Shown here: positions 9,734 through 59,316 of the stretch, one piece after another | How positions within the stretch are numbered: the first letter of the stretch is position 1 | Layout: each line of letters starts with the position of its first letter | Source: Candidatus Nomurabacteria bacterium | Lineage (GTDB): Bacteria; Patescibacteriota; Minisyncoccia; Phycocordibacterales; UBA918 | Direction: 5' to 3' | DNA length: 64,000 nucleotides | Assembly (NCBI GenBank): GCA_023898565.1 | Contig: CP060228.1 | Coordinates: forward strand, 156,170 to 220,169 | Program-made: the position numbers and the translations under genes | The notes under the pieces: generated by a model | Databases searched by the model: none | What the model saw: only the letters and a program-made list of their open reading frames with translations | What the model was told of the DNA's origin: nothing

Positions 9734-9735
9734 GC

Positions 9736-10806: not shown

Positions 10807-10825
10807 AGAGTGACTACAGAATAGC

Positions 10826-11530: not shown

Positions 11531-11632
11531 GATTAATTTGTTGCGTTTTTAACCTATTAATTATAGCAATTTTCTGCCACCTACGGCCCGTTTTGAGCTG
11601 TGCCTGTGTATAAAGTAAGCATACTATACACT

Positions 11633-14845: not shown

Positions 14846-14859
14846 ACAATTTTTCTTTA

Positions 14860-21054: not shown

Positions 21055-21056
21055 AC

Positions 21057-21779: not shown

Positions 21780-21862
21780 ATCGATTTAACTTTAATTATA
21801 AAGCTGAATCGACTACTCGAAGAACGTTTATATGTGTATAACTTTTACTACATTAATCACTC

Positions 21863-32429: not shown

Positions 32430-32934
32430 ATGGGTGAAACTATACCACGTACGCCCGATAAGCTCCGACTAGACGAGGCCGAGATTTGGAGGTGTAGGCT
32501 ATACACAGAAAGACTGGTGGGCGCTTCACTACAAGAGTACTTCAATTTTCATAGTCGCTTCGCTTCTTGAAAATTTAGTCGCACGACCCACCGGTTTTAT
32601 CCTCTACCGTTTCTCTCCCTTTCTTTTCCCTTCTTTCTCGCGCAGCTCTTTGTGTCCACTGTCACCATTTCTCAATTGCTCTTGCAAGACATAAACTGCA
32701 GTCACTTTGCACATTTTTACGAGAAACAACACATCAAACTTAAAGAGACATCTTTAAAGGTTCTACTTATGGTTAACAATGTACTTAATTACTAATTAGC
32801 TGCTAATATTAACCTATGAGAAAGATGCAAAATTTTGGTTACACTATTTTGTAACTAATTACAAAGTATAACTGTTAGACACTAGATGTGGTCATACAGA
32901 ATTTGTAACATCGAATTCATTCTTCAGGAAAATT

Positions 32935-34161: not shown

Positions 34162-34166
34162 AATTC

Positions 34167-34934: not shown

Positions 34935-34937
34935 AGC

Positions 34938-35864: not shown

Positions 35865-36595
35865 AAGCCAATATTTTTCCGTACTGATTTTAGTACACTC
35901 AAGAATCTGGTATGTCTCTCATAGAGATACTCGTCAACGATATCGCCACCAAAACCCAACTTAAATCTGTTAATCCCAGATTTTGACTCGTCGGTCATAT
36001 TAATGTATGCCAAATCTACATATTCAAATCCTCTTGCCCCGCCAAAGCAGCAAACTTCGTATATCAGCCTCTTACTTATATAGCCAATATCTTTCTGAGA
36101 AACGTTTTCATCATGCTTTCTTGATGAAAAAATTGAAATGACCTTTAAAACAGGATTAGCATCAATAAGATAAATGCCGGAAACCACCTTCCCGTTACAG
36201 CAACCAAGCGCCCAAATACCGTTTGCATTCCTTCTCTTGAGAGACGGGCGATTGCTTTCTTTTTCAAATACATCATACAAAGAGTAACCTTCCTCAGAAA
36301 AACCCTTAACTAGCTTAAACGAATAATTTTCTTTGTATGTTTTACGAATTTCGTTTCTATAATTCTTTTTAAATGAGAGTAAAATATCCTCGTCCGTCTT
36401 ACTTGTCAAAAAAATTCTTGTTGTTTTTTTAACTCGACTCAGTTTGAAATCGTCCGGCAAATTCATCGGAAGATAGGAATATACCCTCGCAGAGTGAAAT
36501 GAGTATTTTCTTATAACATCTAAAACAACGTTTTCACTTTCGTAATAAATCTCACACACTCTTATTAAATTGTAAACTGTTTTTTTTCTAATCAT
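35861..36595 (-). CDS. Hypothetical protein, possibly a FemAB/GNAT-like (Acetyltransf_6-like) acyltransferase
   Basis: The C-terminal region ...LIYEVCCFGGARGFEYVDLAYI... weakly resembles the BioF2/FemAB-like acetyltransferase fold. The gene is embedded in the glycan cluster. Confidence 0.3.
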   Translation of the reverse strand: MIRKKTVYNLIRVCEIYYESENVVLDVIRKYSFHSARVYSYLPMNLPDDFKLSRVKKTTRIFLTSKTDEDILLSFKKNYRNEIRKTYKENYSFKLVKGFSEEGYSLYDVFEKESNRPSLKRRNANGIWALGCCNGKVVSGIYLIDANPVLKVISIFSSRKHDENVSQKDIGYISKRLIYEVCCFGGARGFEYVDLAYINMTDESKSGINRFKLGFGGDIVDEYLYERHTRFLSVLKSVRKNIGL

Positions 36596-37257
36596 TTCTT
36601 GTTACGACAAACGAAATAGGTCGTCTTACTGAACCACGGGAAGAATCTGTAAATCTTATCTTTCCAATTTAAATTATCTTCTTTTGCCAATGAAATCTTA
36701 TGAATAATTTCTATATCCCTGAAATATTTTTTAAGTTTAAAAAAATCTGACGGGCTTGTTCTGTATGTTTTAAGTTCATGATAATAATCAAATCTACCAG
36801 AAAAAAAACGGTGCAACTTTTTTAAATATAAACGATTATGAGAACTAAAAATAAATACACCGTCTCTTTTTAATACACGCGCAGCTTCTGACACGGCAGA
36901 ATAGATATCTGGTTCAACATAATCAATGCCGTGAAAAGGAAAAAAAATTGTGTCAAACGTATCATCTTCAAATGCTAGTCGACTAGCATCCATCTCAAAT
37001 ACTTTTACTTGATATCCTGCCATTCTTTTTTTTGACTGGTCAACCATTTCAGGAACAATGTCAACTCCTGTAACACAGAATCCTAAATCATGCAGTGGCT
37101 TCAGAGTTCTCCCTCCACCACACCCAAGCACTAACACATTATCTCTTTTAAAGTGTTTCTTTGCTAAAATTTCCTCATCGTGCCCCCAATAATTTACTTC
37201 ACCATATTGACTGGCTTGGTGTGCATATACTTTCTTATTCTGTTCAGATATGCTCAT
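36592..37257 (-). CDS. Class I SAM-dependent methyltransferase
   Basis: Motif I is NVLVLGCGGGRTLKPLHDLGFCVTGVDIVPEMV, and LKRDGVF is also present. Confidence 0.7.
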   Translation of the reverse strand: MSISEQNKKVYAHQASQYGEVNYWGHDEEILAKKHFKRDNVLVLGCGGGRTLKPLHDLGFCVTGVDIVPEMVDQSKKRMAGYQVKVFEMDASRLAFEDDTFDTIFFPFHGIDYVEPDIYSAVSEAARVLKRDGVFIFSSHNRLYLKKLHRFFSGRFDYYHELKTYRTSPSDFFKLKKYFRDIEIIHKISLAKEDNLNWKDKIYRFFPWFSKTTYFVCRNKK

Positions 37258-38018
37258 CTCTTTAGCAAAAATTTAAATTTTTCAAAAGTCGTCCACGAAT
37301 ATACTCCTTTTCTGTTCAAATGTAACATATTCGAATTATCAACAGTAACTCTACCCGGCCTTGTGCCAAAAGCAACATCATAGTATTTCGCAACTTCAGC
37401 CTCTATACGCTCGCTCCTTTTACCTTTCGGGTAGGCAAAATACCTACAGTCTATGTTCAACTTACTATTGAGAGTTTCCCTGCTTTCTTTAAGCTCTAAC
37501 GAAAGAAGATCTAGATTGGTCACGTCTGGTAAAACAAGGTGTGATTTGGTATGTGAGCCAATAGTTACAAGTGGGTGAGCGGCAAGATTTATTAAGTGAG
37601 ACCAGTTCAAGAGAGGCAACGCTCCATCCACATTGTTCATGCTTCGACCCACAAAATCGGTTGGTACAAAAATCGTTGCTGGTATTTCATATTTTTCAAG
37701 CACCGGTAAAGCATTTTCAATAAAATCAGAGTACGCGTCATCAAAAGTTATAGCGACTGTTTTTAGGGGGATTTTTCTCTTTTTTTTCAACATCACAACA
37801 AGTTCCGGCAGTGACACAACATTCCATTTTTTATTCTTAATATACTTAAGTTGTCTTTCAAAGACTTTCTTACTCACAGTGAACGAAAAACCATTATCTC
37901 CAACTGAATGATACGTAAGAACTACAGCTCCAGACTTAGTCGGCAATAGCGCTGCTGCCATAAACCAATAGATTGATTTCCCAATGTTTAGAATCGCCTG
38001 TAAAAGTTTTATATTCAT
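37254..38018 (-). CDS. Polysaccharide deacetylase (NodB homology, CE4)
   Basis: KTVAITFDDAYSDFIENALPVLEKYEIPATIFVPT is the NodB motif 1/2 region, followed by a His-containing motif (GSHTKSH). Confidence 0.75.
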   Translation of the reverse strand: MNIKLLQAILNIGKSIYWFMAAALLPTKSGAVVLTYHSVGDNGFSFTVSKKVFERQLKYIKNKKWNVVSLPELVVMLKKKRKIPLKTVAITFDDAYSDFIENALPVLEKYEIPATIFVPTDFVGRSMNNVDGALPLLNWSHLINLAAHPLVTIGSHTKSHLVLPDVTNLDLLSLELKESRETLNSKLNIDCRYFAYPKGKRSERIEAEVAKYYDVAFGTRPGRVTVDNSNMLHLNRKGVYSWTTFEKFKFLLKR

Positions 38019-38030
38019 AGTAATGACTAA

Positions 38031-39182
38031 TCAAAGTTTTTGCTCAGGAACATTTTTTGACATAAACGAAATTATATTTTCAGCTCTCCTGCTCCATGTA
38101 TATTTGCTGGCCTGCTCTAGTAACTGGTTCGATACACCCGCCCTTTTTGCAATAACTTCACTAGCCACAGAAATAAAATCGCCCACATCATCAGGACTAA
38201 AAAAGTACCCTTCCTCTTTAAGCACTTCTCTAATTGATGGCAAATCAGAGGCGATTACAGGCTTCCCCATTGCCATATATTCAAATAGTTTAATTGGAGA
38301 CATGTAGTATCGATAGTGGTCAGTGTTTGGAAATGGAGCCACAAAAGCATCAGCTACGTTTAAATAACTCGCCATACTATGATGTGGAACTCTCCCGACA
38401 AAAAAGAATTTTTCTTTAACCGAATACATCTCAGCAATTCCCTGATATTCTGCGATATCTGCTTCAGACCCTCCAATCACTAAAAAAACGACCCCTGGAG
38501 GCAATTGTATCGCTGCTTCAATTAATAAACGAATTCCTTTGTCCATACCAAGCGTTTTAAGCATTCCTGCGTAACATATAATGTTTGCATCAATTGGTAT
38601 TCCAATTTTATCTCGTTTGACGGGAATAACATTAGGCGAGAACAGTTTTGGATCAAAACCGTTGGGAGCGGTTAAGACGTCAGAAACTGAAAGTCCAAAT
38701 CGGTTCACAACCTCTCTCTTCTTCCATTCGTTTGTAACTATGACAAGCCCTGCATTTTTAATGGCAGAGGTAAATAACTTCAAGTATCTCTCAGGAAAAT
38801 CATGCATTTCATAGAAGACACTTAAATAACGCCCAAAGAATAGTGCAAAAAAAATATCCCTAGTTACTACTTTCACGCCTTCGTTCTTTTTTTCCTTTCT
38901 AAAGAAGAACCAAAGTAACTGAAATAAAAATGACACTTCCAATAGGTAGTATCCAAACAACGTGTTGGGAAAAATAGTGACAATAGGTAAATAAGTAACT
39001 TTGAAATTTTTACTTACCCCATAAAATTCGAAAACATCCTCATTAAGGCTGTTTTTTCGTCTTGGAACAACCAAGTTAACCAAATGACCTTGTGCAGCAT
39101 AGGCCTCACACATTTTTGAGATTTGTAACCCATGAGCTTTTTCTGTCGGGATTCTTACATTCGCAACATAGTAAATATCCAT
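38031..39182 (-). CDS. Family 4 (GT-B) glycosyltransferase
   Basis: The C-terminal GT-B donor-binding signature is present: ...FVAPF...EYMAMGKPVIASDLPSIREVL. Confidence 0.75.
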   Translation of the reverse strand: MDIYYVANVRIPTEKAHGLQISKMCEAYAAQGHLVNLVVPRRKNSLNEDVFEFYGVSKNFKVTYLPIVTIFPNTLFGYYLLEVSFLFQLLWFFFRKEKKNEGVKVVTRDIFFALFFGRYLSVFYEMHDFPERYLKLFTSAIKNAGLVIVTNEWKKREVVNRFGLSVSDVLTAPNGFDPKLFSPNVIPVKRDKIGIPIDANIICYAGMLKTLGMDKGIRLLIEAAIQLPPGVVFLVIGGSEADIAEYQGIAEMYSVKEKFFFVGRVPHHSMASYLNVADAFVAPFPNTDHYRYYMSPIKLFEYMAMGKPVIASDLPSIREVLKEEGYFFSPDDVGDFISVASEVIAKRAGVSNQLLEQASKYTWSRRAENIISFMSKNVPEQKL

Positions 39183-39195
39183 ACGTAATTTTTAA

Positions 39196-40050
39196 TCACT
39201 CCAGCAGTGAAATTCCATATACACCAGCAACTAGACTCTTATCCTTACCAGTACTGCCTAACAAGTCAAGATTTTTGGCTTCCAGAGATTTTAACACTTC
39301 TAAACCGACCTTATCCTCAGCTACTAAACTATCATACAAGAAACGAAAAGCAGCCATATCCTTTATGAAACAAGCACCCCCTGCTCCACGACCACTCTTA
39401 TGAATCGGACTATTGTAATACGGTGACATCATAACGTCTTCGTCCATCATTTTTCTCACCGCTTCCCAGTCACCACCAGTTTTTTCACCTACCTCAAAAA
39501 GCAAATTAGAAAGAATCACTCTAAAGTAACCCTGTAGATTGTGCGCATATTTAAACAGTTCTGCCTCTTGAGCTAAAACTACGTGATTGTATTTCGACTT
39601 CGGGAACAATGACAACACTCTTTCAGCTGCCCCTTTCTGCTGCTCTGTGCTCAAAGGGTGACCAACTACATTTATAATCGGATTTGCCACATCATACGCA
39701 GCAGTCTTTTCGCACAAAAACTCAGGCGAAAATAGCACCGTAATACCTGGATACTTTTCTTGCAGTTTTTTTGTAGTGCCAGGCAGAATGGTTGATTTAA
39801 TAACGGCCACCGCTCCCTCAGTAACTAGCGCAAGAACTTCTTCGACAATACTATAATCGAAGCCCACAGGAGTGGTTGGTGTGGGGACGGCGATAAAAAC
39901 CACATCACATTCGGAGATCTTTTCCTCATTATGTACATACTCAGACTCTACAGAGTATCGAACCACCTCATAACCACGGTGTTCAAAATTATCAGCAATA
40001 TTTTTCCCGACAAAACCTTGTCCAATGCAACCGATTTTCATATACTTCAT
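39196..40050 (-). CDS. UDP-glucose/GDP-mannose dehydrogenase family protein, short form (C-terminal UDP-binding domain absent)
   Basis: MKIGCIGQGFVGKN is the NAD Rossmann motif, CDVVFIAVPTP is present, and GGACFIKD matches the catalytic GGxCxxKD. Only about 50 aa follow the catalytic Cys, so the usual C-terminal domain of about 100 aa is missing. Confidence 0.5.
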   Translation of the reverse strand: MKYMKIGCIGQGFVGKNIADNFEHRGYEVVRYSVESEYVHNEEKISECDVVFIAVPTPTTPVGFDYSIVEEVLALVTEGAVAVIKSTILPGTTKKLQEKYPGITVLFSPEFLCEKTAAYDVANPIINVVGHPLSTEQQKGAAERVLSLFPKSKYNHVVLAQEAELFKYAHNLQGYFRVILSNLLFEVGEKTGGDWEAVRKMMDEDVMMSPYYNSPIHKSGRGAGGACFIKDMAAFRFLYDSLVAEDKVGLEVLKSLEAKNLDLLGSTGKDKSLVAGVYGISLLE

Positions 40051-40142
40051 ATTAACACTCTAAATTTATTTTTAGTTACAACCAAAAGAATCAGGTGGCT
40101 TTTTAAAAATAAGTCAACAAAAAGCTCTTTAATTTAAACTAA

Positions 40143-40859
40143 TCAAACTTTCCTATATTCACTATTTTCTTTTACAAAGACAATATCAATCATTTTCAGC
40201 ACACCATTTTTATATGAATGTCCACCGAAGAAATCAAATACGACAAACGAGTTTTGTTTCATAAAACTAACGATAGTTGCAAAATCACTCGGGGTTGAAA
40301 CGCTACCTAGTGGATTAATCCAAGACTCCAACAAAACCACATCACACAATGCTAGAGTTTTAGTCGCCCCCCTCAAGACATCCATTTCAGCCCCCTCGAC
40401 ATCAATTTTAAGAAATATATTACCTTTAATATGATATTTTTCGCACAATGAATCGAGTTTCTTAACCTCTTTCTTAATAACACTAGAAGATTCACGATTG
40501 GCATATTTTGATGACAATCGACCGTTTTTATTTTCATAAAAATCAACAGTCCCATCCTCCGCGCCGCAGAAACAATTTTCAACATTAACAGTAGACATAT
40601 ATTGCTTTTCAAGCACATCCAGTGACTCACTATACCGAGAATCTGCCTCTACCAATAAGTAGTTATAATGTTTGAACGGGAAAGCATTGATTAACTCTGG
40701 CGTACCATCAGCAACACCAATGTCAATGACCCAATCTGGTTTTGATATTAACGTACTTAAAAACAAGAGTCCTTCACAATAAGGCTTCGCGGGAGCATGG
40801 TAATTAGTAATCCTTTTACCAAAATATCTGAATACTTTTTTGGTCATTTCTTTAATCAT
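40143..40859 (-). CDS. FkbM-family methyltransferase
   Basis: WVIDIGVADGTPELINAFPFKHYNYLLVEADSRY ... IDVEGAEMDVLRGA is the Methyltransf_21 pattern. Confidence 0.7.
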   Translation of the reverse strand: MIKEMTKKVFRYFGKRITNYHAPAKPYCEGLLFLSTLISKPDWVIDIGVADGTPELINAFPFKHYNYLLVEADSRYSESLDVLEKQYMSTVNVENCFCGAEDGTVDFYENKNGRLSSKYANRESSSVIKKEVKKLDSLCEKYHIKGNIFLKIDVEGAEMDVLRGATKTLALCDVVLLESWINPLGSVSTPSDFATIVSFMKQNSFVVFDFFGGHSYKNGVLKMIDIVFVKENSEYRKV

Positions 40860-40880
40860 ATGTATAACAATATCATTCGC

Positions 40881-41528
40881 TTATTTTGAAATTTTAAATA
40901 AGTAGCCCAATACATATTTATTACGCAAAGGTCTTCTCAACATAAAATACAGCCAATCAAGGCCATAGAATATAATCAAAAATACTGGCCTTAAAAATAG
41001 CGGCAAGCTTAAATTAAACATTTGAAATGAAGCAATGAAAGGACCCTCCTCAATTGGTATAATTTCTGTACACCTTGCTCCAGCACATTCAAATATTTTC
41101 CGCAACGATTCATCTGTATATCTAAAAAAATCAGAATGATCGGGGTGGTACCACATCAAAAACGGAACGAAACCTATAAGTTGTCCGTCATTTTTTGTTA
41201 TTCTAACCACCTCGTTTGCAATATGCTGATAATTAAATATGTGCTCCATTACGTTTAAAAAAAGTACAGTGTCGTACGAATTATCTACAGCAGGAAGAGT
41301 ATCGGTTTCAAAATTTACATTGTTTCCTGATTTTAAATCGAAGGTTTCAAACGTCACTCCTTCTTTCCTAGGAATAAATGAAAGGTATGATGATTTTCGA
41401 CCGCCGCCAATATCAATTGTTTTCCCTTTCAACTCTTCTTTCAAAAGTGCAAAATTAAGGTAAGCACGCGTTACACTTTTCCCACCACTAACTTCCATCA
41501 ATAAAAATTTAAATTTTGATAAATTCAT
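40881..41528 (-). CDS. Class I SAM-dependent methyltransferase
   Basis: KTIDIGGGRKSSYLSFIPRKEGVTFETFD..YDTVLFLNVMEHI is Methyltransf_11-like. Confidence 0.65.
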   Translation of the reverse strand: MNLSKFKFLLMEVSGGKSVTRAYLNFALLKEELKGKTIDIGGGRKSSYLSFIPRKEGVTFETFDLKSGNNVNFETDTLPAVDNSYDTVLFLNVMEHIFNYQHIANEVVRITKNDGQLIGFVPFLMWYHPDHSDFFRYTDESLRKIFECAGARCTEIIPIEEGPFIASFQMFNLSLPLFLRPVFLIIFYGLDWLYFMLRRPLRNKYVLGYLFKISK

Positions 41529-42532
41529 ACTTCAATTAATATTTTAGGTATTAGTTTCTCCAAACTATGAAATTCATTCACAAAGCCGATTTTTTTTTCT
41601 TCGATTGAGTTTCTTTCATCAAGGAATTTTATTATTTCATTAGAAAAATCTTTTTTATTTACAACTTGAGCAGCGCCGAGTTGCAAAGAGTTTGTGCCCT
41701 CAGCCATAGAGACCACAGGCAAGCCACAAGCCATCGCTTCGAGCACCGCCTTATCTAAGCTACCATTTTTTGCCGCCGTAACAAAAACTTTTGCTCTATT
41801 TAAAACGGCAGGCAATGAATTTTGATCGACTTTTCCAAGAAAATGAACTTTGTTCTCTAGTCCCTTTTTCGCAATACAACTTTTTAATCTTTCCAAATAC
41901 CTTTTTTCTGATTCAGTGACAGCCAATCCAACAATCGCCAAAGAAGCACTCGTCTTTTTGTTAACTAAGTTCAACACGTCGACAAGTACCAAAAGATTTT
42001 TAGATTCCGTAATTCTACCAACTGTAATCAGGTCAGTATCCTTTTCAATCTTTTGAGGCTTGAACAAATTAGTATCAATTCCGTGTCCAGTAACTACCAA
42101 TTTGTCACTAATTAGACGAAAACTTTCAACTGAGCCACTATAAATGGTATCTGCTAATTTCTCGGCTAAACGAAGTGAAAGGGGCACACTTCCGTGCATA
42201 TACCAAAAACCAATTCTTTTTCCTAAAATACGCCAAAGTGAGGCCCCTAAAATTACATAAATTTGATTCATGTGTACAAAAACTCGATCGTACTCATGCC
42301 GCAGACTCCAGATATACTTATAGAAACGCCACACATAGGTAAATCTCCCCTTCCCATCCTCTTTACCCAGGGAATGAACTGTGACATTGCTAGGCAAATC
42401 AAAATCACCTTGCCGCAAGCAAATGACATGTAGATGATCACAATGTTTCGCAAACTCTGCAATCCAACGATGGAAAAAGCCAAGCACTGGATGCTGCTTG
42501 TCTACCACCTGTGTAACGATAAGTAACTTCAT
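41525..42532 (-). CDS. Family 4 glycosyltransferase
   Basis: It has a GT-B fold: the N-terminus MKLLIVTQVVDKQHPVLGFFHRWIAEF and the C-terminus EAMACGLPVVSMAEG. It is the last gene of the AT-rich island. Confidence 0.7.
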   Translation of the reverse strand: MKLLIVTQVVDKQHPVLGFFHRWIAEFAKHCDHLHVICLRQGDFDLPSNVTVHSLGKEDGKGRFTYVWRFYKYIWSLRHEYDRVFVHMNQIYVILGASLWRILGKRIGFWYMHGSVPLSLRLAEKLADTIYSGSVESFRLISDKLVVTGHGIDTNLFKPQKIEKDTDLITVGRITESKNLLVLVDVLNLVNKKTSASLAIVGLAVTESEKRYLERLKSCIAKKGLENKVHFLGKVDQNSLPAVLNRAKVFVTAAKNGSLDKAVLEAMACGLPVVSMAEGTNSLQLGAAQVVNKKDFSNEIIKFLDERNSIEEKKIGFVNEFHSLEKLIPKILIEV

Positions 42533-42582
42533 AATCTATACAACTTACCACGACTACATGAAGTAACAATCGTAGCTAAATG

Positions 42583-43467
42583 TTACTTCTTAGCCACTAC
42601 ATCAAAGTGCACCGCACAGTAGTATTTGAGGAACGGTGGGGTGATTTTTTCGAGTAGAAAATTGAGCGGCTTCGCAACCACCACTCGCCAGACTGTGTCT
42701 AAAATATGCGGCAAAAAGATAATCGACTTTGGCAGCACTGCATACCCTACCGGCTTTAACTCCACTTCGGTAAACCCATCTAATAGATGGAGGACCTCAC
42801 GTCGTGTGTAATATCGTACTGGACCATTCTTAAACGGACGGCCGATCAGATTGAGTAGTGCTTGGTACGCAAGTCCTTGTATGCCCATAAGCGTAACCGA
42901 CCGCGGGAAAGATGAATACACCAGTAGCGTTCCGCCTGGTTTCAATACTCGCTTAATCTCACTCATTGCCTGCTCTACCACGCTCTTGTGATTATGAAGA
43001 AACACCGCTGAGACAATTGCTACATCAACACTACCATTCTTCAGCGGAAGCGTGTGGATGTCGGCATTGAGAAACAGCGCCGGCGTTTGCTGTTCTGCTT
43101 CATTGCCGTTATAGCGCTGCTTGAAGAGAGTGAGCATTTCGTACGCACTATCAACACCGATGTAGCCAGCAAGCGGCATATCAGGCAGTACGTACTTAGC
43201 CACGCGACCATAGCCAGTCCCACAATCAAGCAATACTTCATTGCCGGTGAGATGGCTTTTGATGTCGGCAATCTGGGTTTCTGATTTACGCTTCGCCTCG
43301 GTTTCATCCTTGGCAGAAATTACCGCGTGCGTAGGATTTTCGGTAGCAAGCTTGTCCCAAACGGTCTTTTCAGCGATTTCTTTTGCTATTTTGATGCCGT
43401 CTCGCTCAATCGTGGACTGCGGTTTAAGCAGTGTCTCTAATGTCTCTGTGTTCATAGTTCGGCCCAT
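42583..43467 (-). CDS. Class I SAM-dependent methyltransferase
   Basis: Motif I is LLDCGTGYGRVAKYVL, and LKPGGTLLVYSS is present. GC content returns to about 50% here. Confidence 0.65.
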   Translation of the reverse strand: MGRTMNTETLETLLKPQSTIERDGIKIAKEIAEKTVWDKLATENPTHAVISAKDETEAKRKSETQIADIKSHLTGNEVLLDCGTGYGRVAKYVLPDMPLAGYIGVDSAYEMLTLFKQRYNGNEAEQQTPALFLNADIHTLPLKNGSVDVAIVSAVFLHNHKSVVEQAMSEIKRVLKPGGTLLVYSSFPRSVTLMGIQGLAYQALLNLIGRPFKNGPVRYYTRREVLHLLDGFTEVELKPVGYAVLPKSIIFLPHILDTVWRVVVAKPLNFLLEKITPPFLKYYCAVHFDVVAKK

Positions 43468-43506
43468 AATACCACACTCATCTGCTGATACAGCAGCCTA
43501 TTTTAC

Positions 43507-48256: not shown

Positions 48257-48793
48257 ATGAAAGTACTTATTATTACTCCACTTTTTCCTCCCGACACCGG
48301 TGCACCGGCGCCGTACTCTAAGCTACTGGCCAAACGACTCGCCAAACACGACGTAACCGTTCTTGCTCACGGCACCCTTCCCGAAACGGTACCGCACGCC
48401 ACTATCATTTCTATTCCTAAAAATTCTCTCAAGACTATCCTCATCGCAAAAACCCTGCGCCAACTATTCCTAGTCAAGACTGACCTTATCGTAGTGAATA
48501 ACGGACCAGCTGTTGAACTACCAATGCTCATCTATTCTTTTTTTGCAAAAACACCTTTCATTTTGATTGAGAGCGACCCAATTTCTCTCTCTCATAGCCA
48601 GACAGGACTGCGCGCATTGGTACACCGGAATCTACGAAAGCGTGCCCGCGGTGTATTACAACTGCCAACACACGAATCGGACTACCTGCCACTTGAAATA
48701 CTTCCTTTTAGGAAAATCGACACAGCGTGCCAAGCGGCTCAAGATGCCTGGTGGAATGAACACTGTAAACAAATTGAATCGTATGGGTCATAA
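48257..48793 (+). CDS. Short protein matching only the N-terminal (acceptor) domain of GT4 glycosyltransferases
   Basis: MKVLIITPLFPPDTGAPAPYSKLLAKRLAKHDVTVLAHG matches Glyco_trans_4-like N-termini. At 178 aa it has no donor-binding C-domain. It may be a split-GT partner or a remnant. Confidence 0.4.
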   Translation: MKVLIITPLFPPDTGAPAPYSKLLAKRLAKHDVTVLAHGTLPETVPHATIISIPKNSLKTILIAKTLRQLFLVKTDLIVVNNGPAVELPMLIYSFFAKTPFILIESDPISLSHSQTGLRALVHRNLRKRARGVLQLPTHESDYLPLEILPFRKIDTACQAAQDAWWNEHCKQIESYGS

Positions 48794-49883
48794 CACCGAA
48801 CAAACTTGGCGAGAATATGTCAGTGTGGAACTCGCGGTATTAGAACCGATTTTAGCTCGGCGTGGCATTGCATTGGATGATAATCAACCCCACATTAGCG
48901 GTGAACGCTTTCTCATGAGAAACATTACCACCACGAGCGGCACCAAATTAATCCTTATTGGTACTACACACACAGGAACACCTGTGGTGATAAAAGCAAC
49001 GCGAGACTATGCCGGCAAAGCTGAACTGCAGCATGAGCGAAAATGTCGCGAGCTGCTACATAAAATTAATTTTGCATATGAGACCTTCTCATCACCGGAA
49101 GAACTTGCCTTGTTTACTGAACACAACTTCTTAATATCAATACAGCGTTTTATAGAGCAGTCTTCAAGTTTTACCGAACGATCACTGCCAGAACAGTTCT
49201 CGTACGCACTAACCGGACTAAAAAACCAAGAAAGCGTGCACGCCACGACGCGCAATCACTATCAGCAAATCACCAGAATCTTTGGTGTGCGAACCAGCCA
49301 AAGCTACCAAGACTTATTTGATGGCTTCTCAAAATTTCTCGAACACAATTGCAGTTCAAAAGAAGTACGAACTGTTGTTGCTCGCGCGCACACACACTTT
49401 TGCAACAATCTTATCCGCGTCCAACAGTATTGCGGCTTTCTGACACACACTGATTTTGTTCCACACAACTTCCGTATTGCCGACGACAAACTATACCTGC
49501 TCGACTTCTCCTCACTCACGTTTGGCAACAAACACGAAGGCTGGGCACGTTTTTTAAATTTTATGACACTCTATAACCCTGAACTTGAAGCGCTGCTCAT
49601 ACGCTACGTTGAAGACAATCGAGCTCCAGAAGAACGCGAATCACTACAACTCTTGCGCATCTATCGACTCGCTGAAATCATCACGTACTATGTTCGCACG
49701 CTCGGAAGTAGCACGGGCAGTCTACACGATCTCAACACCGCTCGTATTCACTTCTGGCGTGATGTGCTCGAAGCAGAACTGGAAAATACGCGAGTTGATC
49801 ACACCATCGTAGCCGCGTATAAAAAACTTCGCGACACACTTCGTAGCGATGAAGAAAAAATGAGACAGAAAAACTTGCACTAG
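48783..49883 (+). CDS. Aminoglycoside/choline-kinase-like phosphotransferase (APH/ChoK fold)
   Basis: The track ORF was trimmed to MGHNTEQTWREY..., with MPGG at 48744 as an alternative start. The Brenner-type catalytic motif HTDFVPHNFRIADDKLYLLDFSSLTFG (HxDxxxxN...D) is present. It overlaps the upstream ORF. Confidence 0.55.
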   Translation: MGHNTEQTWREYVSVELAVLEPILARRGIALDDNQPHISGERFLMRNITTTSGTKLILIGTTHTGTPVVIKATRDYAGKAELQHERKCRELLHKINFAYETFSSPEELALFTEHNFLISIQRFIEQSSSFTERSLPEQFSYALTGLKNQESVHATTRNHYQQITRIFGVRTSQSYQDLFDGFSKFLEHNCSSKEVRTVVARAHTHFCNNLIRVQQYCGFLTHTDFVPHNFRIADDKLYLLDFSSLTFGNKHEGWARFLNFMTLYNPELEALLIRYVEDNRAPEERESLQLLRIYRLAEIITYYVRTLGSSTGSLHDLNTARIHFWRDVLEAELENTRVDHTIVAAYKKLRDTLRSDEEKMRQKNLH

Positions 49884-52613: not shown

Positions 52614-53999
52614 TTATTTTGAGTCGGTAAAAAAGGCGCTTTCAGCTGGTTTTGCTGGGCGCGGCGCCACGAGCACACCAAACGTGCCGACTACCAACAA
52701 TGCTCCAAAGGCATAGTATGGCCACGACTCACCGCCTGCTCGTGGCACCGCGCCTGCCGGTGATTGCGACGGCGCAGCAGTGACTTCACTCACCTCAACA
52801 GACTGAGCTAACGGAAACTCTGTGGACTTCTCTGGCATCTCATCACGTATCACTGGATAAAAAGTCACCGCACTATCAGCATACGCAAGTTCAATTTCAT
52901 TCTCTGTTTGCAGCTGCTTGGGAAGCTTGAGTGCCACACTCTCACCTTGTGCGTCGTACACCGCCAGCACCATATCAGTACTACCAATACGTTTTTTTGA
53001 GAGTGTAATGGTCTGATTCGGCAAGAGAATTGTTCGCGGCGGCAACAGCACCTCCTTTGCACCCACTACGCGATACCCAGACAAATCAAGTTCGTACGGC
53101 GAGTCATTATTGATTTGCAAATCACCCACCGAGTTGGTGGTAAGCGACAACGCAACCGGCAGCACCGTAATCGTGTGGCGCGCAATTTGTTCTTGCCGCT
53201 TAAAGCTAGCATACAAAACTACCGCGTACGTTCCTGGGTGCGTAAAATAGTGCGTCGTCTCACTCCCGCTACTCACTGACCCGTCGCCAAAATTCCACTC
53301 ATACAAAAGAGAGTCAATCAAATGATCCCCGATGCCGGAAGCGCTACTTAAAAAAGTGATATCCTGATTCACATACACCGTCTTTGGTGCACTAATTGCC
53401 AATTCCAAAGTGATGCCTGGTAAAACTAATTTTGTTTCAGTTACCTCAACCGGCTTCGCGAGTGGCCCACCATCAGTTTTTCGGACGGAGGCGGATTCAG
53501 ACTTCGCTTGGGCTACTTGTATCTCAGTTGTCGTAATTCCTCGCCCAGGAGTGGCTGCCGCTGTCACCCAGCCACTTGCGGTGTACTGCGCCGTTTCCTT
53601 CGTTACATTATCGCCTCCAATATTTTCCCAATCTTCTCCCCCACTCACTTGATCAACCAGACTCCCATCAACCCTAGCAAGACTCAAGGTCGCACCGGTG
53701 TTTACCAATGCTCCAGTGTAAATCATAAATGCAGAACCAGGAGCAGACGCATCACTACTGCGCTCTAAAACCACATAGCTGTCAGCTGCAATCACACCGC
53801 TCAACGTGATATCAAGATTCACACCATCATTCACATGCCACCCTGTAACGTCTATTGCCGCTCCATCATTATGCAACTCTATCCACTCATAATTCGCAGA
53901 CTCAGCCGAGCCCATCCAAGCTACTTCACTGATTGAAACCGCAGCTTGGACAGCCGTCGGAAACATACCTGTAAACAAGACCAACACCACCCGCCACAT
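52614..53999 (-). CDS. Secreted/anchored protein with a lamin-tail domain (LTD) and a PKD domain
   Basis: It has a signal peptide. The LTD is ISEVAWMGSAESANYEWIELHNDGAAIDVTGWHVNDG, and the PKD domain is YEWNFGDGSVSSGSETTHYFTHPGTYAVVL. The C-terminal hydrophobic anchor is YYAFGALLVVGTFGVLVA. Confidence 0.6.
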   Translation of the reverse strand: MWRVVLVLFTGMFPTAVQAAVSISEVAWMGSAESANYEWIELHNDGAAIDVTGWHVNDGVNLDITLSGVIAADSYVVLERSSDASAPGSAFMIYTGALVNTGATLSLARVDGSLVDQVSGGEDWENIGGDNVTKETAQYTASGWVTAAATPGRGITTTEIQVAQAKSESASVRKTDGGPLAKPVEVTETKLVLPGITLELAISAPKTVYVNQDITFLSSASGIGDHLIDSLLYEWNFGDGSVSSGSETTHYFTHPGTYAVVLYASFKRQEQIARHTITVLPVALSLTTNSVGDLQINNDSPYELDLSGYRVVGAKEVLLPPRTILLPNQTITLSKKRIGSTDMVLAVYDAQGESVALKLPKQLQTENEIELAYADSAVTFYPVIRDEMPEKSTEFPLAQSVEVSEVTAAPSQSPAGAVPRAGGESWPYYAFGALLVVGTFGVLVAPRPAKPAESAFFTDSK

Positions 54000-54005
54000 A
54001 GTTAC

Positions 54006-56066
54006 CTACTGGAATGGCGACCGGCCTTCAGGTGATTCTCTAAGCAGCTTACGAACTGTTGCGATATCAACACCAACATCACCAGACTCCTTAGTAAATG
54101 ATTTTACCTGTGCAGTTGATGACACCTCAGCACCTGACACAGGAATGGGTTTATCTTTACGGTACTCCAATACCACGCGCCTGGCATCGGCAGCTAGAGT
54201 ATTAGCCGGCTGTACTGGTGGCACAATTGATTCTGTTGATGTCGTAGAAGGAGTTGAGACAGATTCAGGTCTCGGAGCTGGCGCTGAAATCGTTTGTGTA
54301 GCAGAATCACTTGGCTGAACACTTTTTAGGGCATCAGCCAAAGCCATGCGAAGTGGTGATGCATCTTCTGATTTCTGTGGCCTTGGCTGCAGCTGCTCTT
54401 TCTTATCGCTATACTTATTTCTATTTCTAGCTGTCACTTCATTTTGTTTTTGGGAAGAGCCGGCTGCCGGCTCTTTTGGTTGTTCTGAAGTCTTTTGCTC
54501 TGCTTGCTTCGCTTCTTTTTTATCAGTATCAGAATCACTCGCCATCTTGGCAAGAATTTGGCGCAAATCATCTGGGCTTTTCTCAGGCGGCCGCTTGCGC
54601 TCATCGGAGCGCACGTCATGTTGCGAATCCCTGCTTCGCGGTGCCGCACTACCACGAGACTGACTGTTGCCAGCATTGTTTCCGAATCCTCCACTGTTGT
54701 TGCCTGAACGCTTTTGCCCACCAGCTCCGCCGCCTGGCTTTTTATCAAATCTCTTCGGTTCTTCGGTACGCTCCGGTGTGTGCAGCTCTGCCACGATCTT
54801 TTCTACTGCCTCACGCTCATTGCCGTATAGTCCTCGACTCGATTCCACCACCATCTCCCGACACGACACCTGCGGCATTGGCACCGGCGGGAGCGTCTTA
54901 GCAGAAAACGGCTGCGAACCAATCCCATCAATCATAAGCGTGAGGTAAATCTGCGCAAAGCCCAAGTTCACTAAGTCAGTCGCCTCAAAGCGTGGCGCGA
55001 AGACTGTTTCGAGCACTTCGGCATCGAACGGACCGACCCGAAATGCAATCGTGGTACCCACGTTTCCAAACACCGCGTTGCGCACGTCTTCCTCCATCTG
55101 CTCGATGTACTGGTGTGCAATGATGAGATTGAGGTGATATTTACGTGCCTCAGAAAGAATATTGGCGAAAGTAGCGTTTGCAAATGACTGAAACTCGTCG
55201 ACGTAAAAATAGAAGTTTGGCATCTGCTTCATCTGCGCTACCGGCAAATCGGCGCGACTCATTGCTGCCAAGTAAATACGCGTGGTGAGCATTGACCCTA
55301 ATAGATTGGCATTGGTTTCACCGATCAATCCTTTTGAAAGGTTCATAATGAGAATTTTCTTCTCATCCATGAGCTTTCGAATATCAAAGCTTGAATGTGG
55401 CTGCCCGATAATGTTACGAATGAGCGGATTGCCTGTAAACTGACCGATCTTATTTTGAATGGCTGGCAGTGCTTCAGCAGTGAAGCGGTCAGTGTAGTTG
55501 GCGAATTCATCCACCCAAAATGCCTTCACCGCTGGGTCTTGAATGTAGTCCACCACCTTCTTACGAAACTCCTTATCGACAAACAAGCGATTTACTGACA
55601 AGAGTGTAGTGTCTGGATACTCAATGAGTGCCAAGAGCGCATTGGTAAGGATGTACTCCATGCGCGCACTCCAGGCATCAACCCAAATCTTTTTGAAGGT
55701 CGACATGAGCCCAGACACCACCAAGTGCCGCTTGTCCGGACCAACGTCTTCCATGACGTTAAATGAAATTGGATGGTCTAAATCAAACGGCGCAAAATAT
55801 ACCACGTCCTGTACGCGATGTTCTGGCACATACTCAAGCAGGGTTTCAGCGGCGGAGCCGTGCGGATCAATGAAAGCCATCCCTTCACCATTTTGGATGT
55901 CTTGCGCGGCCATGTTTTCGAGCAAGGTGGACTTACCCATACCGGTCTTTCCCACCACGTACATGTGACGCTGACGATCCTTCGCCTTAATACCAAAAGC
56001 CACCTCCTGACCTCGAGCGTCAGTCTTAGCGAAAAAGGTAATCTTTTCCGGATCAAAAGCTGTCAT
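54006..56066 (-). CDS. TraD/TrwB/VirD4-like AAA ATPase (type IV secretion DNA-binding-domain family) with a long disordered C-terminal tail
   Basis: The N-terminus ...RQRHMYVVGKTGMGKSTLLENMAAQDIQNGEGMAFIDPHG has a Walker A motif and a coupling-protein-like context. FYVDEFQSF is a Walker B-like segment and IIAHQYIEQM is present. The last roughly 250 aa are low-complexity and rich in K, E, S, Q, P and G. No N-terminal TM helices are present. Confidence 0.5.
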   Translation of the reverse strand: MTAFDPEKITFFAKTDARGQEVAFGIKAKDRQRHMYVVGKTGMGKSTLLENMAAQDIQNGEGMAFIDPHGSAAETLLEYVPEHRVQDVVYFAPFDLDHPISFNVMEDVGPDKRHLVVSGLMSTFKKIWVDAWSARMEYILTNALLALIEYPDTTLLSVNRLFVDKEFRKKVVDYIQDPAVKAFWVDEFANYTDRFTAEALPAIQNKIGQFTGNPLIRNIIGQPHSSFDIRKLMDEKKILIMNLSKGLIGETNANLLGSMLTTRIYLAAMSRADLPVAQMKQMPNFYFYVDEFQSFANATFANILSEARKYHLNLIIAHQYIEQMEEDVRNAVFGNVGTTIAFRVGPFDAEVLETVFAPRFEATDLVNLGFAQIYLTLMIDGIGSQPFSAKTLPPVPMPQVSCREMVVESSRGLYGNEREAVEKIVAELHTPERTEEPKRFDKKPGGGAGGQKRSGNNSGGFGNNAGNSQSRGSAAPRSRDSQHDVRSDERKRPPEKSPDDLRQILAKMASDSDTDKKEAKQAEQKTSEQPKEPAAGSSQKQNEVTARNRNKYSDKKEQLQPRPQKSEDASPLRMALADALKSVQPSDSATQTISAPAPRPESVSTPSTTSTESIVPPVQPANTLAADARRVVLEYRKDKPIPVSGAEVSSTAQVKSFTKESGDVGVDIATVRKLLRESPEGRSPFQ

Positions 56067-56083: not shown

Positions 56084-57616
56084 CTAGCGTCCAAAGCGAT
56101 TTTGGACATACTCAAGCAAAGTCACAACATCGCCAGTCCGATCATCAGAACCAAGAATAATCACAATCAAAGTACGGACCTGACCCTGCAGCTCAACCTC
56201 GTGCAGTGAAATGGATGTTTTGCCAGCAGCCAAGGTTTCACCCACTTTACCGCCAACGAAATTATCCATATCTTCTACTTCATTGAAATTGATGAGGCCA
56301 TCAAACTCACCACCAACATACGCACTTGGGATTTTATCATTAGCAGTTATTTCTAAAATAAAGCTGCGATTACTACGAATGTACTTGGTCAACCGAAACA
56401 AATCACCAAGAGAAGAAACATTGTCAGCACTCAAACCCGATGGGTCAGCGAAGCGCGAATGCATCATGCCCAGCTGGCGCGCTTTTGCATTCATTGCTTC
56501 GATAAATTCAACCCGACCCATTTCACCAGCAATTGTTTCAGCTGCTTCGTTGGAAGATTCAACCAAGAGCAACTGTAATAAGCTGTACATTGATACACTG
56601 CTACGCTCAGACAAACGTGGGATAAGTGAGTGAACAAAGGTTGGTGACGTAATCTGCACACGACCATCAAGGTCGAGCTCTTCCGCTGTCACTACTGCGG
56701 TCATCAACTTAGTGAGCGATGCGATAGGTGCCTCTGCATCTAAGTCTGTTGCAGCCAGAATGGTGCCGTTATCGATATCCGCGATGAAGTAGTGCGGCGT
56801 GTCTAGATTTGGTACCTGTGGCTCATACACAAACACATCACGCTTCTGCTCTAACTTGGCGCGCACCAAGACCGGCAACCCTGCAGCAACATCTCGATAC
56901 AGCTGCTCAGCCTTATCATTAGCCAGCCGAATTCCACCACCAACAAAATCATCGGGAACTGCACCGCCTCCTGGATAGGTTGGTATACCATGAATAATGT
57001 AATTGCCACCAAACTTTAATTGCCAAGGAAATTCAACCTGCGCAATATTACTAAACTCCTCAATATCACGAGCTTCAATCTGGTACAAACCAGACGGTGT
57101 CTCCCACCAAGAACCAACTTCACCAACTGCAAGCACATCAGCACTAAAATACAAAACACCCTTCTTAAACAAGCGAACCTGCTTAGTACTTAAATCGACT
57201 TCAATAAAACTAAGTCCTGCCTCAATGAACGAATCTCTCGTACTGGCAAAAAATGACTCCTGCGCTAGAGCCGGTTGTGGACCGTACTCAAGATCAACAC
57301 TCACCTGACTGTACGGATTCACCACCGTTACGACTGGAGCTGCTAGATTTCGCTCTGAAACCAATCCGTATCCAGTCGCTCCCAGAATAAAAAGCGCACA
57401 TACGGCCATGATTGTAACAATCACTCGTGAAGCAGGTAAAAGCAACGGTGTCGGCCGAGCACTTTGTGGCGTAAAGGTGTGTTTAGGATGTACGGTTGCT
57501 TTTGAGCCAGTTTGCGGAATAAGCATCCCCTTTCCATTCTTAGGCACATCATCACTATACGAAAACAGCTTTACAGACGAATCTGGCTTTTTTGACATAC
57601 CACTATCATACCGCAC
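56084..57616 (-). CDS. Membrane-anchored peptidoglycan enzyme: YkuD (L,D-transpeptidase)-like domain apparently lacking the catalytic Cys, plus a C-terminal serine DD-carboxypeptidase (S11) domain
   Basis: It has an N-terminal TM segment. The YkuD-like segment is NYIIHGIPTYPGGGAVPDDFVGGGIRLANDKAEQLY, where the conserved (S/T)xGC(I/V)R motif appears as GGGIR. The C-terminal domain has SLTKLMT (SxxK), VESSNEA (SxN-like) and GKTS (KTG-like) motifs. Confidence 0.5.
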   Translation of the reverse strand: MRYDSGMSKKPDSSVKLFSYSDDVPKNGKGMLIPQTGSKATVHPKHTFTPQSARPTPLLLPASRVIVTIMAVCALFILGATGYGLVSERNLAAPVVTVVNPYSQVSVDLEYGPQPALAQESFFASTRDSFIEAGLSFIEVDLSTKQVRLFKKGVLYFSADVLAVGEVGSWWETPSGLYQIEARDIEEFSNIAQVEFPWQLKFGGNYIIHGIPTYPGGGAVPDDFVGGGIRLANDKAEQLYRDVAAGLPVLVRAKLEQKRDVFVYEPQVPNLDTPHYFIADIDNGTILAATDLDAEAPIASLTKLMTAVVTAEELDLDGRVQITSPTFVHSLIPRLSERSSVSMYSLLQLLLVESSNEAAETIAGEMGRVEFIEAMNAKARQLGMMHSRFADPSGLSADNVSSLGDLFRLTKYIRSNRSFILEITANDKIPSAYVGGEFDGLINFNEVEDMDNFVGGKVGETLAAGKTSISLHEVELQGQVRTLIVIILGSDDRTGDVVTLLEYVQNRFGR

Positions 57617-57648: not shown

Positions 57649-59007
57649 TTACAAGGCCAGTCCGGTACTCGTGGCGGCCGGCAACAACGCCGCTTTGGTG
57701 TAGATATTAGATGGTGCCCAGATCATCCAGCTTTCCACCCCAGCGTCATAGCTCGCTTGAATCTGCGTACGCACATCAGCCGCGTCATAATCGCCACCAT
57801 AATCAAAGTCCTGGATCCACGTGCGGAGCTTTTCTGGGCCATATACTGGCTTCGTATACTTCCCGGTCGCAAGCGGCGTACCACTCGCATTGTAGGTAAA
57901 GAGCGGCTCGTGCAAGAAGCCATTCATTGGTGTCGTACTAGCTGCCAAGCGATCGACTCCGGTCTTCATGGCGTGATAGACCACTTCATATGGGTGATCG
58001 TTTGGATCCCCCAGACCAAGGTAATTATTCGGGTAGTGTGATGGATACACCATCGGCGCGATGAAATCAAAATATGGCACGGCCCGATCTTGCACTTGCC
58101 CAATCGAGAGGTCGTCGTAATTCGTAGTTGTCATACCAAAAAGATCAGCCGAGGTATACGGAGTGCTTGAAGCGCGACCAGTATTAGTATGTTTTTTAGC
58201 AGAAAATTTCGACTCGTCGTCGAGCTGCTCGTTGAGATATTTGAAAAACGCTTCGAGATTGGCCTGCCTGTCCATTCCATACTGCCCAGCTACGCTTTGT
58301 GGATAGTATGTATCGCTCATGTTGCCGTCTGACGGATAGCGTACGTAATCGAAGTTTAGTTCATCAAAGCCGATGTTGTATGAATCTACTGAGAGCTGAA
58401 TGATGTGATCCCAATATGGCTTCGAAGCCACATCAATAAACGACAACCCTTTCCCGTCTTTCCAAACTGTCTGCTGATCACTACGTAGCACTGCTAGTTC
58501 CGGATGACTCGGCGCATAGTATGGATCTTGAAAGACCGTAATGCGACCAATCACATAGATGTCATGGTCATGCAACATCGTAATCAGCTCTGGCATATCA
58601 CGCGTACCACAACGCGCGTCTACCCAAGCAGATTGCCACTCAGTGCTTTCTGGTGGGAATGAAATGGTACCTGAGTAATCCTTAATATCAATCACGACAG
58701 AATTTATCTCCGTCGCGCGAATCAGCTCCACCAGCTTCGTACGAAACGACGGCGTTCCGGCTACACACGAAGTCATATAGATAGCTTTCACCGCTTCAGG
58801 GAGTGGTACATGCTGCACTACTGGCCGTACGTCAACTGGCTCCGGCAGCGGTTCGGTTACCATCGCAGGCCCAGCAGTAGTGGTGGTTGAGCTAGACACT
58901 GCGCTTGCAGTCTGCTCAACGGTCACATCAAAAAAAGTAACCGGCACAAAACTCAAGACCGCAAATGCTACTGCAGCGAGAACCAGTGGTGTGCCATATG
59001 TATGCAT
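57649..59007 (-). CDS. Secreted putative glycoside hydrolase-like TIM-barrel protein (DUF4015/GHL-type)
   Basis: It has a signal peptide. The region ...ELITMLHDHDIYVIGRITVFQDPYYA...GFDELNFDYVRYPSDG fits the GHL/DUF4015 pattern. The assignment is tentative. Confidence 0.4.
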   Translation of the reverse strand: MHTYGTPLVLAAVAFAVLSFVPVTFFDVTVEQTASAVSSSTTTTAGPAMVTEPLPEPVDVRPVVQHVPLPEAVKAIYMTSCVAGTPSFRTKLVELIRATEINSVVIDIKDYSGTISFPPESTEWQSAWVDARCGTRDMPELITMLHDHDIYVIGRITVFQDPYYAPSHPELAVLRSDQQTVWKDGKGLSFIDVASKPYWDHIIQLSVDSYNIGFDELNFDYVRYPSDGNMSDTYYPQSVAGQYGMDRQANLEAFFKYLNEQLDDESKFSAKKHTNTGRASSTPYTSADLFGMTTTNYDDLSIGQVQDRAVPYFDFIAPMVYPSHYPNNYLGLGDPNDHPYEVVYHAMKTGVDRLAASTTPMNGFLHEPLFTYNASGTPLATGKYTKPVYGPEKLRTWIQDFDYGGDYDAADVRTQIQASYDAGVESWMIWAPSNIYTKAALLPAATSTGLAL

Positions 59008-59010: not shown

Positions 59011-59253
59011 TTATTGTAGCGTAGAATCTTCAAAAAGCCGCTCGGTCGTTTCAACAAACGAATCTGTGCCGCGCTCGCCATTACCAAGGTCGAGCTGTCG
59101 TAAGTAGACCGCGCGCCGAAGCGCATAGCCAATCAGTATTAAAAGAATACCAAACCCAAAAATAATATATTGTCTCCAAGCTAACGGAATTCCGAGATAC
59201 GGCACAATCGTGAGTACAATCCCTGCAACAAAAACCAGCGTTTCTTTCGTCAT
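59011..59253 (-). CDS. Small two-TM membrane protein (80 aa from the ATG; the track ORF starts at an upstream TTG)
   Basis: MTKETLVFVAGIVLTIVPYLGIPLAWRQYIIFGFGILLILIGYAL... has no homology assignment. Confidence 0.4.
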   Translation of the reverse strand: MTKETLVFVAGIVLTIVPYLGIPLAWRQYIIFGFGILLILIGYALRRAVYLRQLDLGNGERGTDSFVETTERLFEDSTLQ

Positions 59254-59316
59254 ACGTAAATACAAGAGGCAGTATAACGCAAAATGCGAAATGATGCGAA
59301 ATGTGTATAAATCAGA

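Follow-up and report, generated by a model that had tools for sequence, protein, structure and literature searches.

The ATPase gene and its motor domain

The window analysed here is a stretch of 64,000 nucleotides from a Candidatus Nomurabacteria genome (contig CP060228.1, positions 156,170 to 220,169; coordinates below are window positions). Its minus strand carries a complete gene for a soluble ATPase that resembles VirD4 and TrwB, coupling proteins of type IV secretion systems (T4SS), and that ends in a long disordered tail. The gene and the parts of its motor domain are located as follows.

54006..56066, minus strand: complete gene; the product is a soluble, VirD4/TrwB-like ATPase that ends in a disordered tail; ATG start, 686 amino acids (aa) plus stop; product 100% identical to database cluster P0001
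54777..56066, minus strand: motor domain, residues 1-430, a RecA-like nucleotide-binding domain with an inserted all-alpha domain; acidic, isoelectric point (pI) 5.3
55926..55952, minus strand: Walker A, GKTGMGKST, residues 39-47; G39, G42, G44 and K45 invariant in a diverse alignment of the family; aligns with the TrwB P-loop
55362..55739, minus strand: inserted all-alpha domain, residues ~110-235, eight helices, from the secondary structure of the model and the span of Pfam TrwB_AAD_bind
55191..55214, minus strand: Walker B, FYFYVDEF, residues 285-292; D290 invariant and E291 nearly so in the diverse alignment
55098..55121, minus strand: IAHQYIEQ motif, residues 316-323; Q319, Y320 and Q323 invariant in the diverse alignment

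Three Pfam models matched the product above their gathering cut-offs: TrwB_AAD_bind (35.0 bits, cut-off 20.5; residues 28-344), TraG-D_C (24.6 bits, cut-off 22) and DUF87 (24.9 bits, cut-off 23.2). Conservation throughout the diverse alignment was found for Walker A, Walker B, AHQY and FRVG. From its sequence the protein would be expected to be an active ATPase, in which the IAHQYIEQ motif may play the part of a sensor. When the PDB sequences were searched with the ATPase, the Walker A region gave a significant alignment to TrwB, and no match was obtained beyond that P-loop; the pairing of Walker B with TrwB LWLFIDEL and of IAHQYIEQ with TrwB VAGLQSTSQ came from a second HMMER domain with a score of -0.2, which is below threshold and not significant alone. 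No transmembrane (TM) helix was detected in the ATPase, the highest 19-residue Kyte-Doolittle mean being 1.35 and located in the ATPase core. Since an in-frame stop codon lies two codons 5' of the ATG, an N-terminal extension is impossible. An earlier note on this DNA had described an open reading frame (ORF) here with a TrwB_AAD_bind-like Walker A and downstream blocks, and had seen no N-terminal membrane helices; the Pfam matches bear out the first statement, the hydropathy maximum and the upstream stop the second.

Two AlphaFold models were used. The domain model, built from the diverse alignment, reached a predicted local distance difference test (pLDDT) score of 91.9 and a predicted template modelling (pTM) score of 0.90; in it, eight helices (residues 110-235) are inserted into a RecA-like core, and its N-terminus is a short beta-hairpin that leads directly into the P-loop domain. 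The full-length model, from a shallow alignment of close homologues (pLDDT 57.9, residues 290-390 unresolved), served for tail disorder only. With the domain model as the Foldseek query against the PDB, TrwB was the top match (E 1e-14, TM-score 0.62-0.64, alignment covering 346 residues), followed by Cagbeta, HerA (TM-score ~0.53), DotL and VirB4 (TM-score ~0.56). Because of this ranking, we place the ATPase in the VirB4/VirD4/HerA group. The structural comparison with TrwB and HerA that had been proposed thus puts TrwB first, but VirD4 and VirB4 cannot be told apart by structure alone, and it is the sequence profiles that tip the assignment to VirD4.

Family size and conservation

A word-indexed database search returned at least 8,000 homologues of the ATPase, and an exhaustive search of 50%-identity cluster representatives returned 21,851 at E ≤ 1e-3 and 5,855 at E ≤ 1e-30. 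Their names include Candidatus Kaiserbacteria, Paceibacteria and Parcubacteria, which identifies the window as part of a Patescibacteria (CPR) chromosome, from a Kaiserbacteria-like member of the Paceibacteria, and some are annotated at NCBI as 'type IV secretion system DNA-binding domain-containing protein'. At least 597 matches were confirmed in species-representative genomes; the best 80 of these, at 55-88% identity, represent ~16 candidate lineages that have names, ranging from Kaiser- and Adlerbacteria through Doudna-, Magasanik-, Uhr- and Moranbacteria. The window's gene is an ordinary, already annotated member of a phylum-wide family. At the same loci, mean identity to the window protein was 71% for the motor domain, 51% for RsmI, 48% for DUF4015, 41% for a GT4 glycosyltransferase and 40% for MurC, and the motor was the better conserved partner in every comparison with neighbour genes. 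As judged by these identities, the ATPase gene is under stronger purifying selection than adjacent housekeeping genes, and it belongs to the conserved core of many Patescibacteria lineages.

Two further observations concern the members of the family. One locus (L081; loci are designated here by L numbers) carries at 105-2702 a divergent paralogue with 42% identity to the query and a fused DUF8128 module (see below), 8 kb upstream of a split DUF8128 and ATPase pair; this fits the ~two coupling-protein homologues per genome given in the literature. Many third-party-annotated metagenome-assembled genomes titled 'uncultured Candidatus Saccharibacteria' (L007, L009, L011, L018 and others) carry genes 70-88% identical to those of Kaiserbacteria and Paceibacteria in the same synteny, and their Saccharibacteria label looks unreliable.

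A membrane protein, DUF8128, adjacent or fused to the ATPase in other lineages

Gene neighbourhoods were compared at the loci of the best 80 of the at least 597 species-representative matches, and neighbours were clustered without preset families. Loci at or above ~61% identity have DUF4015 (24 loci) and RsmI upstream of the ATPase and a protein with an LTD, or LTD and PKD, domain downstream (16 loci). At loci under ~63% identity a ~446-aa protein is encoded directly upstream on the same strand (33/80), with a ~350-aa protein before it (30/80). Many relatives at ~50% identity to the window's ATPase are themselves longer, the ATPase being preceded by a ~350-aa module and a TM helix at the N-terminus, and the separate upstream protein proved to be the N-terminal module of these long forms (BLASTP E 1e-52 to 1e-73). 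The module bears the name DUF8128 (PF26449) in precomputed Pfam annotation; as a separate protein it is about 390-460 aa long and has, besides its N-terminal TM helix, a domain of ~350 aa. A hidden Markov model (HMM) of the upstream module found it in 36 loci, in none of L001-L046 and not in the window. Among the closest 150 representatives, 99 ATPases were soluble and 42 fused to DUF8128, 22 of the 42 with a clear TM helix. Outside the window's clade, the ATPase lies directly downstream of DUF8128 in most lineages.

In about 100 loci within L047-L169, with or without an adjacent ATPase, the gene immediately before DUF8128 encodes a ~340-aa protein with Sigma70_r4 and HARE-HTH domains (for example L050 7657-8766 and L087 4986-6014). 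HARE-HTH and DUF8128 constitute an uncharacterised, very stable gene pair, and the HARE-HTH protein, of a putative DNA-binding type, is a constant companion within the ancestral module. The TM helix of DUF8128, its adjacency to the ATPase and its fusions with it are the basis on which we suggest that it would act as the membrane anchor, in place of the N-terminal TM helices of canonical coupling proteins. The earlier note had called the ATPase an orphan and had proposed a search for co-occurrence across relatives. That comparison did yield recurrent neighbours, DUF8128 and HARE-HTH, in lineages outside the window's clade, and the word orphan is not supported for a family with a dedicated membrane partner.

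A probable single separation of the ATPase from DUF8128

In a neighbour-joining tree of the motors, all anchor-less loci including the query formed one clade, nested among anchor-adjacent lineages, with the anchor-adjacent Niyogibacteria loci L047 and L050 as its sister. At L087 the HARE-HTH and DUF8128 genes are followed by YceG and no ATPase. A metagenome scan seeded with the DUF8128 subclade of this locus gave 80 loci, and with L087-L089 included 76 had enough downstream sequence: 58 of these carry the pair without an ATPase in up to 10 kb, in 16 the ATPase is the adjacent gene, and in 2 it follows after 0.5-1.0 kb. The DUF8128 tree placed 57 of the 58 detached copies in one clade free of adjacent or fused members, whose sister is an adjacent set with L047 and L050; its topology mirrors that of the ATPase tree. 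At one locus (L135), MurC and DUF4015 lie beside the detached pair, again without an ATPase. The simplest reading of these sequences is that a single rearrangement occurred at the base of the Kaiserbacteria-like clade and that both genes then persisted and diversified. The genome from which the window derives would accordingly be predicted to retain a detached HARE-HTH and DUF8128 pair outside the 64 kb.

The disordered C-terminal tail

The motor domain is followed by a tail of 256 aa (residues 431-686; pI 9.6, 14% hydrophobic), with these features.

54579..54776, minus strand: basic low-complexity segment rich in G, S, N and R, residues 431-496, pI 10.6
54534..54578, minus strand: tail island 1, SPDDLRQILAKMASD, residues 497-511, predicted helix; conservation window 493-509, with D500, L501 and L505 90-100% conserved
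54321..54353, minus strand: tail island 2, LRMALADALKS, residues 572-582, predicted helix, conserved
54147..54197, minus strand: tail island 3, LAADARRVVLEYRKDKP, residues 624-640, predicted helix, weakly conserved; consensus RxVVxExR
54009..54071, minus strand: C-terminal island, VDIATVRKLLRESPEGRSPFQ, residues 666-686, with a nearly invariant R-S-P-F end

In the full-length AlphaFold model the tail is disordered apart from four short helices at residues 498-511, 572-581, 624-636 and 668-674, and it is of low complexity. The ~250-aa disordered tail that had been read from the sequence is therefore present, and its low complexity stands; its composition had been given as rich in K, E, S and Q and is in fact dominated by S, A, P, K and R (S 13%, A 10%, P 9%, K 9%, R 8%, E 7%, D 7%, Q 7%). 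The four predicted helices match the sole conserved stretches of the tail, namely PPEKSPDDLRQILAKMA, ASPLRMALADALKSV and the C-terminal DIATVRKLLRESPEGRSPFQ. Within the C-terminal island, L675, R682, P684 and F685 are 90-100% conserved among close homologues, and L007 and L008 have the same ending; tail length and endings differ between clades. Short docking motifs in disordered C-terminal tails are known from other coupling proteins, F TraD (which binds TraM) and DotL (which binds adaptors). The tail of the ATPase, disordered and with short conserved motifs, is like these, and by analogy its motifs may serve the same docking role.

A CxxC...CxxC motif ~30 residues past the motor was found in 25 of 33 tails of anchor-adjacent ATPases and corresponds to PF23477, a 'probable treble clef zinc finger'. 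Its consensus, CxxCGKxTKVxFKPDGxRPVYCxxC, comes from L052-L061, L088 and L089 (for example residues 453-479 of the L089 ATPase), and for the motif RPVYC nothing relevant was found in the literature. Of 40 tails from the detached clade, 39 are cysteine-free, and in the window's protein the basic segment 431-496 stands where the anchor-adjacent ATPases have the zinc finger. Tail sequences thus indicate that the ATPase of the window's clade has lost the treble-clef zinc finger.

Genes around the ATPase in the window

The immediate neighbours of the ATPase gene, given for context only, are these.

52614..53999, minus strand: LTD and PKD protein with a hydrophobic N-terminus, downstream neighbour of the ATPase across a 6-nucleotide gap
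56084..57616, minus strand: YkuD and Peptidase_S11 fusion, 17-nucleotide gap upstream of the ATPase
57649..59007, minus strand: DUF4015, conserved upstream neighbour in the window's clade (24 loci)

The ATPase is flanked, as described earlier, by an LTD-PKD protein and by peptidoglycan enzymes. The latter are in one protein, which joins a YkuD L,D-transpeptidase to a Peptidase_S11 D,D-carboxypeptidase and stands between DUF4015 and the ATPase only in L001-L008. As a clue to function they were rejected, the fusion being a recent arrival confined to the closest relatives. The LTD protein is in the +1 position of the ATPase in both the anchor-adjacent and the anchor-detached lineages (L088 9306-10997, L089 9202-10257 and the window); it has stayed beside the ATPase more persistently than the peptidoglycan enzymes have, which is not to say that it belongs to the system. 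A promoter and terminator scan gave no significant minus-strand signal in the intergenic gaps around the ATPase. With tight packing and no terminator-like site in the gaps, the ATPase is probably co-transcribed with its cell-envelope neighbours. Between RsmI and DUF4015 lies an 84-aa ORF (59011-59265, minus strand) with no Pfam match; it has a counterpart 80-aa gene in L001-L006 and 45-60% identity to counterparts in L007-L009.

Every ORF of at least 150 aa and this conserved 84-aa ORF were scanned with Pfam. The matches in the window were to housekeeping and glycan-biosynthesis genes, and no Pfam match to VirB4, VirB6, a relaxase, a pilin or ComEC was found in the 64 kb, where eight of the scanned ORFs match nothing. 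The statement that no other T4SS genes lie in the window accordingly holds for the Pfam-matched ORFs.

Comparison with known coupling proteins and published work

Like the coupling proteins VirD4, TrwB, TraD, Cagbeta and DotL, the ATPase has an FtsK/HerA-class P-loop domain with an inserted all-alpha domain; its identity to TrwB is ~14%. Unlike them, the polypeptide encoded in the window has no N-terminal TM helices, and the gene is unlinked to virB4 or a relaxase and belongs to the chromosomal core rather than to a mobile element. The DUF8128 module of its relatives has no counterpart in canonical coupling proteins. With VirB4, including that of monoderms (for example Thermoanaerobacter 4ag5) and VirB3-VirB4 fusions, only the ATPase fold is in common. 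A VirB4 identity finds no support in the sequence profiles: TIGR00929 scored 14.2 bits against a cut-off of 643, and there was no match to CagE_TrbE_VirB or AAA_10. A separate bona fide VirB4 exists in Patescibacteria according to a recent survey (PMC12102498).

That survey, by Quinonero-Coronel et al. (2025; PMC12102498), reports 5,713 homologues of VirD4-type type IV coupling proteins (T4CPs) in 2,918 of 3,035 Patescibacteria genomes (96%), ~two in each. Only 148 of the 5,713 are near virB4, and exaptation is suggested. VirB4 itself occurs in 2,417 of the 3,035 genomes (~80%); its clusters are as a rule close to dnaA, as in Paceibacteria, and distant from the T4CP homologues. The ATPase family studied here and these 'T4CP homologues' are almost certainly the same proteins, and the pattern of orphan T4CPs has therefore already been published. 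Wang et al. (2023; PMC10633639) found the T4SS to be essential and its cluster to be without a recognisable coupling protein. Neither the consulted passages of the survey nor searches of the literature on PF26449 and on Patescibacteria T4CPs gave any account of DUF8128 and HARE-HTH as partners, of fusions, of a soluble architecture or of the split in the Kaiserbacteria-like clade. We regard this architecture, a soluble motor with a DUF8128 anchor either separate or fused and a HARE-HTH companion, as a distinct variant of the coupling-protein theme.

Proposed role of the ATPase and alternatives

Patescibacteria account for much of bacterial diversity and are ultra-small, host-attached cells unable to make their own nucleotides. 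Of interest for the way in which macromolecules cross their envelope is a coupling-protein-like ATPase that is ultra-conserved and, by the counts of the 2025 survey, present in almost every genome, away from the T4SS cluster. Our preferred reading, to which we assign a probability of about 0.6, is that the window encodes the soluble motor subunit of a VirD4/TrwB-type ATPase whose anchor, DUF8128, is encoded separately, the two having been split once in the window's clade. Six copies of the ATPase would assemble into a ring that docks on DUF8128 from the cytoplasmic side of the membrane. Substrate would be recruited by the all-alpha domain together with the basic disordered tail and its short conserved helices, and ATP hydrolysis by the ring would engage, move or hand over that substrate. 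A nucleic acid or a nucleoprotein complex seems the most likely substrate, given the ancestry of the family, the presence of either a basic tail or a zinc finger, and a companion protein of DNA-binding type. The outlet could be the patescibacterial VirB4-type T4SS or something else; a distribution wider than that of VirB4, and the mismatch in essentiality between the two, argue for at least partial independence from the VirB4 T4SS. With this reading a vague 'exapted T4CP' becomes a defined three-protein module of ATPase, DUF8128 and HARE-HTH; two uncharacterised families, DUF8128 and the Sigma70_r4 and HARE-HTH protein, gain a functional context that can be tested; and the partnership of ATPase and DUF8128 appears, from the two trees, to have survived the separation of the genes in one large clade.

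Several results count against the anchored-motor reading. The NCBIfam models for TraD and VirD4 all scored far under their cut-offs (SXT_TraD 46 against 366, conju_CD1115 37 against 250). A search with the DUF8128 profile gave no detectable relative in the PDB, VirB4 structures included, or in NCBIfam. Neither DUF8128 nor HARE-HTH was found by tblastn or HMM in the window and 46 loci of its clade, and the ATPase and a detached DUF8128 were never found in one genome, the accession prefixes of the two locus sets having no overlap. Both trees are neighbour-joining trees without support values. In Ca. Southlakia epibionticum the T4CP homologue, a possible orthologue of the query, is reported to be non-essential and perhaps exapted (PMC12102498).

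A bolder form of the same idea is that HARE-HTH, DUF8128 and the ATPase constitute an undescribed Patescibacteria-wide translocation apparatus independent of the VirB4 T4SS, with DUF8128 as adaptor or channel partner and the tail capturing substrate; we offer it tentatively and think it rather unlikely. Such an apparatus might, for example, import host-derived DNA or RNA, or export nucleic acids, across the membrane of these nucleotide-auxotrophic epibionts, and the substrate-capturing part of the tail could be the zinc finger or the RG-rich segment, depending on the lineage.

Alternatively, the ATPase could be an ordinary coupling protein of a VirB4-type T4SS encoded far away, to whose VirB4 and VirB6 it would hand substrates. 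The T4CP fold fits such a role, as do the VirB4 clusters without a coupling protein of their own in 2,417 of 3,035 genomes (PMC12102498; PMC10633639), and in other systems, too, genes of this kind are often away from virB4 (PMC12102498). We nevertheless consider this account rather unlikely. By the figures of the survey (PMC12102498), few homologues are near virB4 (148 of 5,713), more genomes have a homologue (2,918) than have VirB4 (2,417), and the homologue is dispensable in Ca. S. epibionticum, in which the T4SS is essential. Moreover, the ATPase family has its own conserved module in DUF8128 and HARE-HTH, and no T4SS gene was seen among the recurrent neighbour clusters of the first 80 loci, on which a VirB4 model was not run.

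A motor for DNA uptake in competence, an idea of the earlier note, acting through ComEC or a pilus-associated route, would suit organisms that are naturally competent and rely on imported nucleotides (PMC10633639), and the basic tail, the DNA-binding-type HARE-HTH protein of the ancestral module and weak NCBIfam matches to CedD, the DNA-translocating ATPase of the Ced system (21.5-28.9 bits), point the same way. These scores are, however, far below the CedD cut-off of 600 and are restricted to the P-loop region, and no ComEC-, ComEA-, DprA- or pilus-like member was identified among the recurrent neighbour clusters; we judge a competence role to be quite unlikely.

Still harder to sustain is an ATPase of the HerA/FtsK/DptH class that works on the cell's own DNA, in repair or segregation, or in anti-phage defence. 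The DUF87 match is marginal, the model has no HAS-barrel, and no nuclease or effector partner was identified among the conserved neighbours. PADLOC matched the ATPase to mad8 at 53 bits and to HerA at no more than 30 bits, and gave no matches for the neighbours or DUF8128. These matches are generic, and membership in a defence system was rejected.

Finally, a decaying remnant of an integrated conjugative element, the relic that the earlier note had considered, would agree with the lack of any relaxase or mating-pair-formation gene in the window, but is effectively refuted by the conservation data. The frame and catalytic motifs are intact, this core gene is under strong purifying selection and is better conserved than MurC, its chromosomal synteny is kept in many lineages, and its local GC content of 0.49 is typical of the window.

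Other features of the window

A low-GC island at 32000-43500 (GC content 0.34-0.42, against 0.44-0.53 elsewhere in the window) encodes GT2 and GT4 glycosyltransferases, several S-adenosylmethionine methyltransferases, a polysaccharide deacetylase and a UDP-glucose dehydrogenase, and looks like a horizontally acquired surface-glycan cluster. The region 8969-22975 contains minus-strand ORFs of 254, 366, 234, 1070 and 370 aa without a Pfam match, as well as a 240-aa ORF with a weak, sub-threshold HTH_17 match and a protein of 2064 aa that includes a NosD/right-handed beta-helix region; it is possibly a large surface or adhesin cluster. Two overlapping plus-strand ORFs of 178 and 438 aa at 48257-49883, which have no Pfam match, break an array of genes that lies almost entirely on the minus strand.

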